This document shows positions 4,693 through 52,449 of a stretch of DNA of 64,000 bases, piece by piece. A program made the translations under genes and the position numbers. Numbering within the stretch: position 1 is the first letter of the stretch; every line of letters begins with the position of its first letter. The notes under the pieces were generated by a model. The model worked only from the letters and a program-made list of their open reading frames with translations. It was not told where the DNA came from and made no database searches. Source of the DNA: a virus; the IMG/VR virus record IMGVR_UViG_3300011271_000003, positions 1 to 64,000 of that record. One strand, written 5' to 3'.

Positions 4693-6014
4693 TGCCTCCA
4701 GCACTCACTGACTACACCTGGGCGTTCGGCGAGAGCGGGTACGTTCTAAACGTTGACAACTTCAGTACGTTGCCGTTCTTTGATGTAACTAGCATTACGG
4801 GTCTCGACAGCGCGCCGCCAAGAACTAATACGAGTGAGCACCAGGGCACTGATGGAACGTATGTCGACTCTCAGTACATGTCGATGCGGACTATCATAAT
4901 TACAGGTAACCTGTATACGGCAGCAAGTGATCCTGATACTGTATGCAGCCTGCTTAAGCAGCAGTATGGCGTGGGGCAGGGTATTCAGCCCTTCTACTTC
5001 AAGCACCCCAACCAGCCACTCAAGTTCATCAACGCTCAGGCGACTGGTGCTACTTACTCGGTTGATGTCAACAGGCGCATAGGTATAACTCCTATGATGC
5101 TAACGCTGCTGGCTTCCGACCCCTATATCTATGACTACCCGGCAGAATCGGTTATTGTCCCGATTGGAACCTTGGGTGGCTTTTCTGTACTTAACCTCAA
5201 CTCGGACTTTGAGTCAAATGTCACCAACTGGACGGCAGCTAACGGTGCAACTATAGCTCAGTCAGCAGCTCAAGCATACTCAGGCCTTAACTCAATGCTG
5301 ATGACACCTAACGGTGTAACAGCGGTGCCTAAGTCGTCTGCAGAGCTTGATGCAATAGTTCCTGGGAACACGTATGTAGCACTTGCCAAGGTGTTCTGCT
5401 CTGCTGCGTATGCGACGGGCGTCCAGGTTGTCATCAACTGGTACACCTCTGGTAGTGTTTATATCTCGACGACATCTGGACCCCCTGTTGCGCTGTCTGC
5501 GACCACGTGGACGCCGCTGCAGATTGCAGGCACTGCTCCCGCAACAGCGGCGTTTGGTCAGATTGTCGTTCAGGCGATTGGAACGCCCTCTGCCGCCACT
5601 TTGTTCTACTGGGACCTGTGCCAGCTTGGCTTGTATTCTGGTATGGGCTTCAATATGGGCTTCAATATGGGGTTCGGTACGATGGTCGTCACTGCTACAG
5701 GCTTCGTGTACAACAACGGAACTCATACGGCCTATCCGATCATTAAGCTTAACGGTCCGTTGAATAACCCCGTCGTGGCTGATACAGTACTTGGTATCAG
5801 CATGCCATTCTCGATCAACCTGGCGTCTACGGACCAGCTAGTGATAGACTGTAACGCTCGAAGTGTCGTCCTGAACAAAACGTCGAGCGCAAGAACTGCG
5901 CTTCAGGGCCGCAAGTGGTTCTCGATTCCTTCACAGACTGGAGACTCATTCTTTCTGTCTGCAGGAGGGGGTACGGGAAATATGGAAGTTGACTTGTACA
6001 ATACCTACTACTGA
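4692..6014 (+). CDS. Distal tail protein with inserted carbohydrate-binding module
   Basis: Follows the TMP; Dit-like N- and C-terminal parts; central NSDFESNVTNW...WDLCQL CBM4/9-like insert. Confidence 0.7.
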   Translation: MPPALTDYTWAFGESGYVLNVDNFSTLPFFDVTSITGLDSAPPRTNTSEHQGTDGTYVDSQYMSMRTIIITGNLYTAASDPDTVCSLLKQQYGVGQGIQPFYFKHPNQPLKFINAQATGATYSVDVNRRIGITPMMLTLLASDPYIYDYPAESVIVPIGTLGGFSVLNLNSDFESNVTNWTAANGATIAQSAAQAYSGLNSMLMTPNGVTAVPKSSAELDAIVPGNTYVALAKVFCSAAYATGVQVVINWYTSGSVYISTTSGPPVALSATTWTPLQIAGTAPATAAFGQIVVQAIGTPSAATLFYWDLCQLGLYSGMGFNMGFNMGFGTMVVTATGFVYNNGTHTAYPIIKLNGPLNNPVVADTVLGISMPFSINLASTDQLVIDCNARSVVLNKTSSARTALQGRKWFSIPSQTGDSFFLSAGGGTGNMEVDLYNTYY

Positions 6015-32516: not shown

Positions 32517-34184
32517 TCAGCTAGTTTCTGGCTTCTTGCTGATGCCTTGCGTGATTCCCTTGTAGATGTCTGCCATTGTCGGGTCGATCATAACATCCGG
32601 TAGATTCCCAGATCTGTCCTTTCCGATATATCCCTCGCGTGCGCCTGTAAGTAGCTTGCGGACAGGCTTGCCGTCTTCTGTCTTCATGTACAGGTAGGTG
32701 ACGACATCGAAGAACCCCGCCACCTCGAACGAGAGCTTCCCTGACAACTGAGGCATGTGCAGGATCGAGCCGTTCAGGGCGTCTTTCTCTTGCCGTTCGT
32801 GAGCTGTCATGATCACGTTGACGGGGAGGTCACGGTACTTGCGAACCCACTTGCGAATCTGCTCTATATTCTTACCCCACCTCCTGATATCCGGAATGTC
32901 TGGGTCCCAGTTCTTCTCTGGTTCTGCCATAAGCAGCTCGGCCATAAGCTGGGACATGTTCATTTTCTGGCACTCGGTAAGAGTATCCAGAATGACAGTG
33001 CGTGGCGCGTACTCTCCAGGTTGTACGCCATTGTAGCAGTTGTGGACGAAGATTCCCGCTCCTATGGCGAAGTTTCTTGTCGAAGTTTGAATGTCGAATG
33101 TGGGCTCTTCTCCTGCTGGCGTTATGGAGACTACTCTGTGGTTTTGCTTATTTTCCTGTAGGATCCTGTAGACGCGCGATACTGATAGATTCAGGTGCTC
33201 TGCTACTTGCATCCGTGTCCAGTCAGGGTGTTCTTGTATAGCAGTCGCAACTTGGTCACGACTGGACCCCTGACCTGGCCTGCCCCTCTTCTCATTGTAG
33301 TACTCCTGTAGTCCCGCTGCACTAGCTTGCTCTGACTCAGAAGTGTGCCACTTGAAGTCTGTCAGCTTAGAGTGATCTCCCCGTGAAAGGCACTCTAGGT
33401 TGTCAGGGTAGTTGTTGAATGTGTTGTTGGGATCAGCATCGTTGCGGTGGTGTACGACCATACCTTCAATATCCATGCCGAAGAACCTCGCTGCGACTCT
33501 GTGCATATACTCCAATGGAGTCGTCCATTTGTTGTCCGGCTTGACTACGTGGTACTGCTTTTTTGACTTACCTACTGTAACGGTGCTCACGGTAGCAGGC
33601 ATCAGCGATGTGCCTCGGATGAGCTTATCTACGCGTGCATAGGTTCCATCGCGCAGCATAAGAAGGTGGTCTCCAGTTGCCCTAAATCGAGAAAGATTCC
33701 CAACTCTGTCGTCGAGTACGACTTCGTATACAGGCTTAACGCCCTGTACGAAGACTTCCTCGACTAGGGCCGGCGTCCAGCCGTCTTCGTCCGTCCACCC
33801 CCAGACCCAGTCTCCCTTTTGTAGGGCGGCTATTAGCCTGTTCCTGTTGAGCGTAATGACTTCGGTGTCACCTGTCAGGCATTGTCGAGCTATCTGATCG
33901 TACACTGCCTCTAGCTGGGCCCAGGAGAGGCTTCCTTCCTCTGGAACCTTTTTGATCTCTGGAGCTGCATGCCGAAGCGTCATGTCCCCGCCCTCAATGT
34001 TGAGGTACAGGACCGGACGCATTGCGGGCACGTGATCCGCCGTAGCAGCCAGGAACGTCTTGCCGACGCCAGGCTGGCCATATATAAGTAGGTTGATATT
34101 GGCACGTGTGTCTCTGACCGGGGCAAAAGGAATGCCCGCGAACGTCTTTGGACTTACGACAACGTTTGCCGCCGGAGTGGTCAC
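32517..34184 (-). CDS. AAA_24/Sak4-like ATPase, intein-containing
   Basis: Walker A GQPGVGKT, Walker B VILDTLT, MTAHE, FFDVV.Y, GKDR. Confidence 0.8.
   Translation of the reverse strand: MTTPAANVVVSPKTFAGIPFAPVRDTRANINLLIYGQPGVGKTFLAATADHVPAMRPVLYLNIEGGDMTLRHAAPEIKKVPEEGSLSWAQLEAVYDQIARQCLTGDTEVITLNRNRLIAALQKGDWVWGWTDEDGWTPALVEEVFVQGVKPVYEVVLDDRVGNLSRFRATGDHLLMLRDGTYARVDKLIRGTSLMPATVSTVTVGKSKKQYHVVKPDNKWTTPLEYMHRVAARFFGMDIEGMVVHHRNDADPNNTFNNYPDNLECLSRGDHSKLTDFKWHTSESEQASAAGLQEYYNEKRGRPGQGSSRDQVATAIQEHPDWTRMQVAEHLNLSVSRVYRILQENKQNHRVVSITPAGEEPTFDIQTSTRNFAIGAGIFVHNCYNGVQPGEYAPRTVILDTLTECQKMNMSQLMAELLMAEPEKNWDPDIPDIRRWGKNIEQIRKWVRKYRDLPVNVIMTAHERQEKDALNGSILHMPQLSGKLSFEVAGFFDVVTYLYMKTEDGKPVRKLLTGAREGYIGKDRSGNLPDVMIDPTMADIYKGITQGISKKPETS
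33039..33881 (-). mobile_element. Intein carrying an HNH endonuclease and an HTH
   Basis: CLTGDT...ATGDH...YMHRV..VVHHRN..NN.PDNLE..H...IFVHN followed by C. Confidence 0.88.
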
Positions 34185-34775
34185 TGGCGCTCCTCTTTGC
34201 ATGGGCTGCCGTTGAGCATACATTCTGCCGCTACAAGTACTGCTTCAGCATAGCCTTCGTCGTGTGACTCCCAGCCATGCTCGCCTTCGACGTGTTCCCA
34301 GAGCTTCTCAGGATCAATTCCGACCGCAAGACCTATACGGTCGCACTCAGTTGGCCTGGGATCGAGGTCTATCCAGGGTTCGCCTACACTCACTGGCGCT
34401 CCAATACGGAGTGGGACGGAGGTACTTGGACGGCTGGTTCCGTAACTGTCCAGGGGCCAGCCTGTTCGCAACCTTTGGTTCTGTCGCAGAAGAACGTTTG
34501 GCGAACATCTATCTGAAGGTGTTTAAGTGCCTCTGCTGCATGTATTGCCAGTGTGTCACCTGTAGGAATGACGGTAAGTGAGTTCTGATGTACTGCATGA
34601 GCGTGTACTGTTACGTCTCCTACGAATCCAGGTTTGGAGCACACACCACACGAGCTACCAAAGACGAACTTCTTCATTCTGACTACCTTTCAGCCTGTTG
34701 TTCTCTTTATCCGCCAGCCGTACCAGGTAGCGATGTCAACATAAGCCTTGGCGAGGCTCCCAGCGGAGAAAGACG

Positions 34776-49607: not shown

Positions 49608-50033
49608 TCATCCTGTAGCCTCCAGACGCTCAAGTTTCGCCTCTACTGCCTGGAGGCGCTTGTTAATCTCTAGGAAGCGTTGCTCTAGCGCTCCCAGTCT
49701 GGTGCCTCGTACTTTCTGAGCCTTTGCGACCCTCATAAAGACGTCAATGTCTGGATCGTCGAGTAGCTCCCACCTGGATGCAGCGCTCCCACCTCCTCGG
49801 CTTAGCTGCTTGATACAGTTCATCTGTTCGAGTCGGTTCAGACATGAAGAATAGTAGGGCGTAGGTAGCTCGAGCTGTCTGAAGAGCTTAGTTGTGTGCC
49901 CCTCCCAGATGAAGGCGTGCCGCTGGTCCCCACCGTCTGGGATGTTAACGGGTATGGCCCCTGTCTTCATTGCTGCGAACACTCTGCAGACATGTTCGTA
50001 GAGTTTTGGTGGAGCGCTTCGCATTGCGGTCAT
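49608..50033 (-). CDS. Putative winged-helix DNA-binding protein
   Basis: LF.QL.L..PYYS..L..L..M.CI.Q..RGGG...S.W pattern with a coiled-coil tail. Confidence 0.45.
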   Translation of the reverse strand: MTAMRSAPPKLYEHVCRVFAAMKTGAIPVNIPDGGDQRHAFIWEGHTTKLFRQLELPTPYYSSCLNRLEQMNCIKQLSRGGGSAASRWELLDDPDIDVFMRVAKAQKVRGTRLGALEQRFLEINKRLQAVEAKLERLEATG

Positions 50034-50479
50034 GCGGGCTCCAGCTTGGCCCTGATTCGTTCTGCTGTTCTAGCTGCGTCGTCCATCGCGAGTGCGACTC
50101 CTAGTAGGTCTTCCCAGCTCTTGAGAGTGGGATCTGACGCTATATGTTTCTGCTGTGCATCTTTTTGGTCCGCCCAACCTTCGAGCACCGTGTCGAGTAT
50201 GAATGCTAGGACATCGGTCTCGTCGTTGTCGAGCTCAAGGGTCATACTCTGACCTCCGTTGTGTAACACAAAAATCTGCCAAAATATATACGCCATCCAC
50301 CCTCAGCGTCACCTCACGACGCCTACACCCGTGGCCTCCCGCGGTCCTACAGAAGCTATTCACCTTCATCCTCATGTCAGAAGGACTGAGCAGGCTCTCT
50401 TTTTCGGCATCCGCTACTGTTAGTGTTCCTTCGACAAGCGGTCGTCGACTACGACGAGAGTTATCTGTGACCTGAAACA

Positions 50480-51500
50480 CAGACAATGACTGTTGTAACC
50501 GGCCGGTGAATGGGCCAGCGCTTCTGCAGGCGCTTCCTTGTACTGGTCTGGGTCCGATAGCTCACAGCGCCTTCACGTACACCATCGGACCCAGAAACTC
50601 CTAAGTGCCAGGGTGCCGCAGGGGTAGTGGTCACTAGTAACCAGCGCGCGTTACCCCTGCGACAGAGCGGAATCGAACCGTCCAGCATTACGATCTGCCC
50701 AAATCTGTGTTGTTGTAAGTTCGGGCTCCGGGAGTCCTGTTCCTGGCCGGCTGACAACCGACCGTTACGGAACAGGACTCCCGTGAGGGTTTAGCCCGAC
50801 GCGCTGTGCCCTGCACCTCGAAGAGGTGGACGCTCCCTCGCTATTCCTGGCCCCTTGCCAGTCACGGCTACTCACCAGGACTTTTGCGTCCAGCTCACAG
50901 CTCTAGGCACGTCGGCATCCGACACTTTCGTTCGGACCTCACTGCGAGCTGAACGTGGTGGCGCGCTTACCGTATCGTACCGTGCCATCTGTTAGCTGGC
51001 ACGGGCATTTAAGGTAAGCGCGCTGTTTACGACCGGCTCCTCAGGGGCTCCTATACTTGCCGCTCGCGCGGGCCTTGCTGAGGACTTACCTGGTTGACCA
51101 GCGCCCGCCATCCCATTGGATGGCGGGCGTATCCAGTTCGAGGGTGGTCAGTGCCTACCGGTCCGTCTTCCCAGAGGGCGGTTCGGGTTCCCCACTCTCT
51201 GGGCGCTCCTTGTCACCGTACTAATCCGTCATGGGACGAGGAGCCTGTCTCTATTGAGTTGTCAAAAGTTATCGGCGGAGCTGCCCCAGCCACCGGCCTA
51301 AGGGTTTCCACGACAGCTCCGCCTTCGGCTCTCCGTCAGCTTTGATCGTGTGCCTGCTCTCAAGGAACTAGCATCGATCTCGAGCTTTTGGCGAACCTAG
51401 TCAGCGGTGGAAGTTTGACCTCCCACCGCCGTCGACCGGTCTCAGCGTGTCGGCGCTGGCCTTGTCGATCCGGCGCTCGGTCAGCGACACCCGACCTGCG
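50480..51500 (-). ncRNA. Large structured non-coding region, candidate ncRNA(s)
   Basis: ~1 kb without a credible ORF; several perfect 10-15-bp stems; strand inferred from flanking genes. Confidence 0.55.
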
Positions 51501-51510
51501 TACCGGAGCG

Positions 51511-51584
51511 TGGACCAGACGGGGTTCGAACCCGCGACTTTCCCGATGCTAGGCACGTCTGCCTAGACCCGCGCATACTGGCCC
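51511..51584 (-). tRNA. tRNA-like element with non-canonical anticodon arm
   Basis: GGGCCAG/CTGGTCC-A acceptor; GCGGG TTCGAAC CCCGT T-arm; 74 nt. Confidence 0.5.
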
Positions 51585-51588
51585 ATCC

Positions 51589-51690
51589 GTGGGTGGGAGG
51601 GATTTGAACCCTCGAGCAGTTTCGCTGGGAGCAGCGACCCCGCGATACTTCCCTAGTATCACCGAACGGCCTCTAGCGGCATACCACCCT
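51589..51690 (-). tRNA. Long tRNA-like element with extra arm
   Basis: GGGTGG/CCACCC acceptor; GAGGG TTCAAAT CCCTC T-arm; GATAC-TAGGGAA-GTATC arm; TCGCTG/CAGCGA arm. Confidence 0.5.
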
Positions 51691-51738
51691 ACCACCTTAC
51701 CGACGAGAAGGGCATCAGCTCTTACCGTCGGAGGAGGT

Positions 51739-52329
51739 TTATTCAGCCTCGACGACCTCGGAGCCGTCGGTCACTTCGGCCTCTTCCTCCGCCTCGACCG
51801 GAACGGTCCCTGGCACCTGCACAGCTGCCTTAGCCGTGGTCGTTCCGGAGGCCTTGGCTGCCTTCTCTGCGGCCTTAGCTGCCTTAGCGTCCGCCTTGGC
51901 CTGGTCACGCTCGCCCTTGCGACCCCACCAGGCTACGACCTCAGCGATCACGACGCCAGGCCGAGTGAGAGTAACGCCGTGCTCGCTGACCTGCGGCTCA
52001 GCGAAGGTGTTGCCCTCCGCGTCGTAGTGCTTGACGGGGAACGGGTCGTCCTTGCCCGGTGACTTCACGAAGCCGTACATGCGCTGCGGCTGGAAGTTCG
52101 CATCCACGAACGGTGCGGATGCGCCTTCCTCCTTGTGCGTCTTCAGCCAGTTCAGCGCCTCGATCGGAGTCGAGACACCTTCCGGCAGCTTGTGCTTCGT
52201 AGCCGGGTTCGTGGTACCTGAGGTCGGCTGCGCTGGGACCGCTTCGGTCCCAGCAACCTCCTGCCCGTTGGTAGCAGCTTCGGCCTGTGCTTCCTCGGCC
52301 GCCGGGGCCTCGGTCTGCATGTCAGTCAT
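51739..52329 (-). CDS. Probably highly expressed early protein of unknown function
   Basis: First gene after a strong promoter; very high GC3; Ala/Lys-rich segment. Confidence 0.7.
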   Translation of the reverse strand: MTDMQTEAPAAEEAQAEAATNGQEVAGTEAVPAQPTSGTTNPATKHKLPEGVSTPIEALNWLKTHKEEGASAPFVDANFQPQRMYGFVKSPGKDDPFPVKHYDAEGNTFAEPQVSEHGVTLTRPGVVIAEVVAWWGRKGERDQAKADAKAAKAAEKAAKASGTTTAKAAVQVPGTVPVEAEEEAEVTDGSEVVEAE

Positions 52330-52419: not shown

Positions 52420-52449
52420 ATTTTATCGCAGGCTCACTGGGGAAGGCAA
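52420..52449 (-). promoter_or_regulatory. Sigma70/HrdB-type promoter TTGCCT-N18-TAAAAT
   Basis: AT-rich gap; shares the CCCTTG -35 context with the 37.5-kb and 58.7-kb promoters. Confidence 0.65.

Follow-up and report, generated by a model that had tools for sequence, protein, structure and literature searches.

The locus described here raises the question of what a phage keeps in almost 1.5 kb of DNA that is surrounded by genes of DNA metabolism and encodes no protein. The window, that is, the whole stretch of 64,000 nucleotides that was analyzed, covers the opening 64 kb of a virus record that measures 98.8 kb and has direct terminal repeats; the phage stems from soil metagenomes. From about 11 kb onward, the genes of the window lie on the minus strand, as do all genes near the gap. 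Those around it encode a ParB-like protein, an ATP-dependent ligase, a PolX-like protein, GDPD, an SNF2 helicase, a PD-(D/E)XK nuclease, an intein-bearing RecA-like ATPase, a primase, QueC, and PolA. A RecA-like AAA_24 protein, encoded at 32517-34223 (minus strand), is split by an intein with HNH and HTH domains. A sequence-only reading had flagged positions 50480-51500 as ORF-poor and densely structured, and had proposed that they encode a large phage noncoding RNA in the manner of GOLLD and ROOL. The noncoding gap proved to be wider, namely, 50246-51738 (1493 nt), extending from the stop codon of one gene to the ATG (at 50245) of the next:

51739-52329, minus strand: gene for a 196-aa protein with a Lys/Ala-rich helical tail behind a conserved core; upstream syntenic anchor of the gap
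50030-50245, minus strand: gene for a 71-aa protein; first gene past the RNA and downstream syntenic anchor, matched by tblastx to 5392-5595 of the related locus L005

The 196-aa protein has 25 relatives and gave no match to Pfam or PHROGs. The core of its structural model reached a pLDDT above 90; in a fold search, no PDB entry matched at E ≤ 0.001, and the best-ranked hits were weak and winged-helix-like. With a confidently modeled core and a long Lys/Ala-rich helix, this protein could bind nucleic acid. The 71-aa gene is preceded by the ribosome binding site GGAGG at 50257-50253 (minus strand).

Codon usage, scored as log-odds in a profile trained on the long ORFs of the same genome, was negative in all frames of both strands across 50180-51700 and positive in the genes on either side. 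When the whole 98.8-kb genome was passed through a crude codon-usage filter, no other stretch without a codon-usage-positive ORF was as long as 50297-51738, which upholds the earlier statement that the region is ORF-poor. The ten longest ORFs within the gap had no match in Pfam or PHROGs, and none of the single stop-codon reassignments opened a frame spanning it (the longest stop-free run was 195 of 497 codons). A small-protein coding signature, which the sequence-only reading had itself set against an RNA, was looked for in the gap and not found by codon usage, Pfam, or PHROGs. Hidden coding is thus ruled out on three counts (codon usage, protein families, and reassigned stops), and the gap from 50246 to 51738 is noncoding.

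The noncoding sequence is also exceptionally structured. Positions 50285-51270 (986 nt) folded with -449 kcal/mol on the minus strand, corresponding to a z-score of -10.9 against dinucleotide shuffles, and with -426 kcal/mol on the plus strand (z-score of -7.8), which bears out the description of the region as densely structured. When 300-nt windows were slid across the locus, z-scores of -4 to -8 occurred only within 50400-51450; those of the flanking genes ranged from +1.7 to -2.9. Helices of at least 7 bp comprised 160 bp on the minus strand versus 120 bp on the plus strand; the minus strand forms more and longer helices because of G-U pairs. Thus, 50285-51270 folds beyond chance, and the minus strand is favored. 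The individual stems named in the sequence-only reading were recovered as well: 50729-50743/50769-50783 (15 bp, perfect), 50961-50971/51013-51023 (11 bp, with a nested 8-bp helix at 50980-50987/50997-51004), 51102-51113/51118-51129 (12 bp, perfect), and GGCGGAGCTG/CAGCTCCGCC, which pairs at 51274-51283/51314-51323. Additional stems were found at 50547-50558/50584-50595 (12 bp, perfect) and 50614-50626/50652-50664 (13 bp). That so many stems are perfect could also reflect recent palindrome formation instead of selection on RNA.

Inverted repeats that fold on both strands, situated among replication genes (ParB-like, ligase, PolX, SNF2 helicase, primase, PolA), might be taken for an element acting at the level of DNA, such as a replication origin or a set of protein-binding palindromes within a replication gene block. 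We regard this as highly improbable: the G+C content is 0.57-0.63, compared with a genome mean of about 0.54; there are no iterons or repeated consensus sites, every palindrome being different; the minus strand has its G-U-dependent advantage in folding; and the boxA and the tRNA-like elements described below are signals of RNA.

On the minus strand, the 196-aa gene is followed by two tRNA-like elements, three hairpins, a boxB-like hairpin, a boxA, the RNA body, a terminator-like hairpin, and the 71-aa gene. The body and the elements within and behind it are as follows:

50310-51248, minus strand: structured RNA body of about 950-960 nt with about a dozen stable hairpins
50665-50683, minus strand: T-arm-like hairpin GGACGG-TTCGATT-CCGCTC, followed by CTGTCGC-A; a repeat similar to the T-arm of tRNA-like element 2
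50283-50309, minus strand: terminator-like hairpin with a T-rich tail, overlapping a promoter-like match at 9 of 12 positions

The hairpins of the body include, in the direction of the minus strand, 51129-51102, 51023-50961, 50955-50887, 50783-50729, 50664-50614, and 50595-50547. Between the terminator-like hairpin and the ribosome binding site of the 71-aa gene lies the palindrome TTGTGTTACACAA (50259-50271, minus strand), which could be an operator or a small hairpin. The T-arm-like hairpin at 50683-50665, which resembles the 3′ half of a tRNA, encompasses the T-loop-like GGTTCGATTCC that had been noticed earlier (minus strand, 50679-50669). No full partner for its 5′ acceptor strand was found within plausible distance of 50683, and alignment with the long tRNA-like RNAs of the related phage loci L039, L040, and L162 was unconvincing; a giant tRNA-like or tmRNA-like domain closed by this T-arm was rejected on these grounds.

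Whether the body is one discrete molecule was judged by its predicted architecture and by comparison with known families. GOLLD and ROOL are noncoding RNAs of phages and prophages of 0.6-0.8 kb that are often encoded next to tRNA genes and whose function is unknown (PMC5737381; 10.1101/2024.12.08.627333). The RNA of the window resembles them in being large, noncoding, of phage origin, and adjacent to tRNA-like elements (PMC5737381); this likeness is one of context only, not of membership. At the gathering score, no Rfam family matched anywhere in the window, and at E ≤ 10, apart from the weak tmRNA alignments described below, only chance-level matches were obtained for 50100-51900. This applies to the covariance models of GOLLD (RF01998) and ROOL (RF03087), neither of which matched at the gathering score in the window or at E ≤ 10 in 50100-51900, and likewise to group I and group II introns, RNase P, 6S, and other Rfam families, for which there was no match beyond chance level. 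Identity with GOLLD or ROOL, for which an Rfam scan had been suggested, is therefore not borne out. The broader proposal of a large phage noncoding RNA is supported in part: the lack of coding, the strand-asymmetric structure, the tRNA-like neighbors, the phage origin, and the presence of a boxA, which fits a long untranslated transcript, agree with it; an affiliation with GOLLD, ROOL, or any other Rfam family does not hold.

In its strictest form, the proposal is that of one discrete, "ornate" RNA of ∼0.95 kb, an analogue of GOLLD and ROOL that is excised and folds into a single, possibly multimeric particle. Its size, its origin, and its neighborhood would fit, as would the very strong z-score of the fold, and a predicted 8-bp helix (51147-51140/50304-50297) could close the whole domain. 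Still, we consider this form unlikely, if far from negligible, as no Rfam match was obtained even at the permissive threshold and the predicted fold of the body consists mostly of consecutive, independent long hairpins and not of an ornate multi-junction core. A leader-trailer helix was dropped from consideration because the best long-range pairing (16 of 19 positions) was equaled in 3 of 40 shuffles. No conserved multi-junction or pseudoknot core can be demonstrated in the RNA of the window, and unlike GOLLD and ROOL, which are conserved across phyla, it is without detectable homologs; as set out below, relatives hold unrelated RNA at the same locus, which is not the behavior of conserved ornate RNAs.

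The next elements to be considered are the two that lie directly behind the 196-aa gene, 5 nt apart from each other and 250-440 nt upstream of the large RNA:

51590-51689, minus strand: tRNA-like element 1 (100 nt), a cloverleaf-like fold in the MFE structure
51511-51584, minus strand: tRNA-like element 2 (74 nt), read from the sequence, with a match to the Rfam tmRNA model below the gathering score

Element 1 has a 6-bp acceptor stem (GGGTGG/CCACCC) with discriminator A, an anticodon-like hairpin with the loop TAGGGAA, a long variable-arm hairpin, and the T-arm GAGGG-TTCAAAT-CCCTC, which matches the tmRNA model weakly (14.8 bits); the element is noncanonical in having A33 and extra bases past the D region. 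In element 2, the acceptor stem GGGCCAG/CTGGTCC contains G3:U70 and is followed by discriminator A (A73). Its T-arm is GCGGG-TTCGAAC-CCCGT; there is no D-stem, CCA is not encoded, and a 7-bp hairpin with a 4-nt loop (4-6 nt) takes the place of the anticodon arm. With default settings, ARAGORN called neither a tRNA gene nor a tmRNA in the window or in the whole genome. Element 2 was called only at -ps80, as "tRNA-???" with a 2-nt anticodon, and the calls made at such lowered thresholds were low-scoring and mostly noise. The elements are thus not canonical tRNAs or tmRNAs, given the lack of a default call, the 4-6-nt loop of element 2, and A33 of element 1; the tRNA-like neighbors described in the sequence-only reading do exist (51689-51590 and 51584-51511, minus strand), though in noncanonical form.

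Element 2 resembles the tRNA-like domain of tmRNA (RF00023) in having G3:U70, discriminator A, a T-arm, and no D-stem. It matched the Rfam model in this domain only and with 15.9 bits (E = 7e-4), compared with a gathering score of 47, and it differs from tmRNA in having neither an mRNA-like frame nor pseudoknots. Because it combines the identity elements of alanine with the lack of an anticodon loop, element 2 is a candidate decoy for AlaRS or SmpB, which makes it of interest by itself. Other tRNA-like RNAs, of ∼130 nt, were observed in related soil phages (L039 1063-1190, L040 3427-3560, and L162 5088-5215); they possess an acceptor stem and a T-arm, and a 60-70-nt insert instead of the anticodon arm. 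Those of L039 and L040 have the conserved blocks AGAGCCTCGGYAGAG and CGAGAGATCCGG in common, and both share GAGGCCGTTCGGTG and a TTGGGA-type loop with element 1.

The three T-loop motifs and two cloverleaf-like elements of the window, together with the tRNA genes that relatives carry in the corresponding cassettes (a tRNA-Met of 68.9 bits in L162 and a tRNA of 30.8 bits in L005), might suggest that the gap is a decaying tRNA array, whose genes have drifted past recognition. Such drift destroys pairing, yet the region folds far better than expected by chance; its perfect stems of 12-15 bp do not have the size of tRNA arms, and only about 200 nt are tRNA-like at all. This makes a decaying array very improbable.

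Between the tRNA-like elements and the body, a short motif known from rRNA operons was found; a candidate promoter is situated farther upstream:

51274-51323, minus strand: boxB-like hairpin with a 10-bp perfect stem (12 bp in the fold), ending 7 nt before boxA
51249-51266, minus strand: rrn-type boxA TTTGACAACTCAATAGAG (18 nt), present in one copy in the window and matching Nitrospira rrn leaders
52420-52449, minus strand: weak sigma-70-like promoter candidate (TTGCCT, an 18-nt spacer, TAAAAT; 9 of 12 matches)

The boxA motif was the only block found in common with L005, the one close relative known at first. Most hits of an exact scan of species genomes for the 18-mer pattern were on Nitrospira contigs, frequently at the ends of these contigs. 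When position 11 is allowed to vary, the 18-mer is found in four Nitrospira genomes at a distance of 63-65 nt upstream of 16S rRNA; the free position is G at these four loci and C in the window. At all four, the motif sits downstream of a promoter and a hairpin, and the order of hairpin (boxB) and then boxA is that of rrn leaders (PMC10250234). A related 18-mer, AACTCAATAGTGTGTTTG, was found in 7 of 301 sampled Actinomycetota genomes, where it lies 153-170 nt upstream of 16S at four of the six loci examined; the other two end at contig ends. An initial interpretation of the motif as a promoter for a T7-type phage polymerase was dropped once it had been found in rrn leaders. Its variants would point to a host among the Actinomycetota or Nitrospira.

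The boxA consensus GYTCTTTAANA is gamma-proteobacterial (PMC5725501). The Nitrospira form GTTCTTTGACA matches this consensus with one change; the copy in the window retains TTTGACA and differs in the four bases before it from GYTC (PMC5725501). As the bases 5′ of the conserved TTTGACAAC thus deviate, binding of Nus factors is not assured. Two more copies of boxA are present in the genome beyond the window, at 76591 (plus strand) and 77013 (minus strand), and extend into GTGTGTTTGTGTG. They are part of a 30-nt inverted repeat, AACTTRACAACTCAATAGTGTGTTTGTGTG (76591-76620, plus strand; 77013-76984, minus strand), about 12.6 kb past the end of the window, which brackets a small minus-strand gene at about 76680-76945. 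Like actinobacterial rrn leaders, this repeat combines boxA with a GU-rich tract resembling boxC. By analogy with the rRNA processing stalk, pairing of its two copies in the transcript could enclose the gene in a long stem.

The sequence-only reading had placed the RNA downstream of a strong promoter, which was not supported: the nearest upstream candidate, at 52449-52420, matches the consensus at only 9 of 12 positions, and the number of such sites is no higher than in shuffles. It lies upstream of the 196-aa gene and, as far as sequence allows us to judge, would be the sole candidate start for the unit.

About a dozen unrelated phage lineages of IMG/VR also carry this boxA 18-mer, which there follows a hairpin and precedes protein genes or tRNAs. 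In L035 (IMGVR_UViG_3300037258_000514), an unrelated 176-kb phage, it is located 9 nt upstream of an array of five tRNAs (Asp, Trp, Gly, Cys, Thr), which runs on the minus strand from the motif at 1774. The fact that the 18-mer heads this array shows that phages put boxA before stable-RNA genes. In L010 and L024, it lies 5-10 nt before protein genes, behind a promoter and a hairpin. In L047 and L074 (Streptomyces), the 18-mer occurs as its reverse complement, flanked by the 3′ end of a tRNA gene on one side and by a terminator hairpin on the other, a placement for which the leader model does not account.

Homologs of the RNA body were sought on several routes. A distant-mode blastn search of 50,697 phage records returned nothing; when the retrieved loci were searched by short-word blastn and nhmmer, only boxA and T-loops proved to be shared with the window; an exact scan of IMG/VR for the 15-bp hairpin gave 0 hits; and soil DNA contigs yielded only the source contig and small fragments, with no usable variation. 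No homolog of the body was detected on these routes, and the helices in the RNA of the window are predictions from folding and not from covariation. The locus itself was traced in relatives by its flanking genes. L005 is syntenic, with flanking proteins 44-76% identical; its gap of 936 nt contains a tRNA, boxA, an RNA of about 700 nt (z-score of -3.6), and a terminator. The gap of L162 (970 nt) holds a hairpin, the boxA-like CTTGACAATTGAATAC, and an RNA of about 480 nt (z-score of -7.1), beside a genuine tRNA-Met, the 130-nt tRNA-like RNA, and a clean terminator. In both, the terminator hairpins are clearer than that of the window and occupy the same relative place. A search with the downstream gene uncovered ten more loci; L176, L178, and L180 carry the core (C/A)TTGACAACT at the same place. 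In L037, the gap measures only about 260 nt, and L163 has no gap.

Thus, the boxA core TTGACAAyT is kept at the syntenic position in L005, L162, L176, L178, and L180 (six syntenic phage loci, the window included), and the RNA behind boxA in the five related lineages is 0.3-1.0 kb long and differs in length and sequence. As the RNA of the window is otherwise unmatched in the relatives, what is conserved at the locus is boxA and the presence of a folded noncoding RNA, not the RNA itself. Some of the relatives do share an RNA among themselves: L176, L178, L180, and L183 contain a conserved domain of ∼135 nt with compensatory changes at the syntenic position, located behind the boxA core in the first three. 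A covariance model built from these four (R1) found an untrained fifth member, L173, at 45.7 bits; at E ≤ 10, it did not match the window, L005, or L162. The domain, which appears to be uncatalogued, occupies the following positions:

L173, 3573-3699: ∼135-nt domain
L176, 3473-3608: ∼135-nt domain
L178, 3465-3599: ∼135-nt domain
L180, 3496-3625: ∼135-nt domain
L183, 3488-3619: ∼135-nt domain

In view of the different RNAs that follow the same boxA in relatives, a single giant RNA is no more likely than a modular leader or an array of RNAs. If the gap were a leader, it would be a long, structured 5′ region that gates the early genes downstream, without function of the RNA in trans; only polymerase modified at boxA would pass the hairpins and the terminator-like site at 50309-50283. 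That boxA is the sole conserved element at the locus, with sequence of varying length and content behind it, would agree with such a gate, as would the terminator-like hairpin just before the next gene in the window, L005, and L162. Since ordinary protein genes directly follow boxA in other phages, its target here may be the downstream operon and not the RNA. A gate, however, needs neither 1 kb nor a dozen very stable hairpins, most of which are without U-tracts, and the tRNA and tRNA-like genes in the cassette point to the production of stable RNA. We therefore rank the leader as possible, albeit on the unlikely side.

The reading that we consider probable is that the gap is an untranslated minus-strand RNA module of an early (DNA-metabolism) operon, which is transcribed under Nus-factor antitermination. 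The confinement of the structure signal to 50400-51450 supports a module, and the RNA behind boxA is folded in L162 and L005 as well. We infer that the module is transcribed, bound by Nus factors, processed, and functional in the following way. Host RNA polymerase would most likely arrive from the upstream 196-aa gene and transcribe the two tRNA mimics, then the hairpin, and then the rrn-type boxA. The boxA RNA would recruit NusB/S10 and, together with NusA, NusG, and SuhB, give rise to an antitermination complex of the rRNA type. An untranslated RNA of one kilobase inside an operon is a natural target of Rho, and boxA is the cellular answer to Rho on rRNA (PMC5725501, PMC6614797). Because the complex would be resistant to Rho, it could cross the about 960 nt of hairpin-dense untranslated RNA, and it would then continue into the next genes or stop before them. 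The RNA would probably be cut at the tRNA-like elements and the long stems. The presence of the former in the unit suggests processing by the enzymes of tRNA maturation, and the long perfect stems would suit RNase III. The product may be a single large RNA or a set of smaller stable ones, for which a decoy, sponge, or scaffold for a host RNA-binding factor is our favored guess.

The closest cellular parallel to such a module is the leader of bacterial rrn operons. Both have a hairpin followed by boxA, which in the window equals the Nitrospira 18-mer except for one free position; in both, boxA is on the transcribed strand before a long, untranslated, structured RNA, and the unit includes elements of the tRNA type (PMC10250234, PMC6614797). 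The window differs in that it contains no rRNA, no GU-rich boxC (none was found behind its boxA copy), and no significant leader-trailer helix. In addition, the bases 5′ of its boxA core are unlike the rrn form GTTC, and its tRNA-like elements are upstream of boxA and not in a spacer.

Among phages, the tRNA region of T4 offers a parallel. It contains genes of the tRNA type and the small stable RNAs C and D, which are about 120-140 nt in length, are released by the tRNA-processing enzymes of the host, and have no known function. The locus studied here resembles it as a phage unit in which genes of the tRNA type are combined with further stable, structured RNAs; in the window, the part other than tRNA amounts to about 1 kb, compared with the about 120-140 nt of RNAs C and D. 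We know of no boxA described in the T4 tRNA region. In bacteria, boxA also protects CRISPR arrays from Rho. Its use outside rRNA operons extends to other units, for example, the suhB leader (PMC5725501). These instances are chromosomal, whereas here boxA would serve the RNA cassette of a phage. No paper that connects boxA with large phage RNAs emerged from full-text searches of the literature.

A bolder variant of the module can be envisaged, in which its product is a single, lineage-specific giant phage RNA: by means of boxA, the phage would hijack the rRNA antitermination and chaperone machinery of the host, and tRNA-processing enzymes would release the RNA at the flanking tRNA mimics to form a folded particle, for example, a decoy or scaffold for a host factor. 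We hold this variant to be unlikely. If it were true, the boxA-headed locus of this phage group would serve as a slot in which fast-evolving RNAs are exchanged as cargo, comparable to islands of anti-defense genes, but made of RNA.

To our knowledge, very few large structured RNAs of phages are known, and none of them with a known function. The locus adds a case in which the logic of transcription is readable from the sequence: a phage copy of a signal of host rRNA operons, boxA, precedes a kilobase of folded, untranslated RNA accompanied by tRNA mimics, and in related phages, this signal is kept while the RNA that follows it changes. Should expression be confirmed, phages would be shown to exploit the rRNA antitermination machinery for making stable RNAs of their own, and boxA would provide an experimental handle on such RNA.
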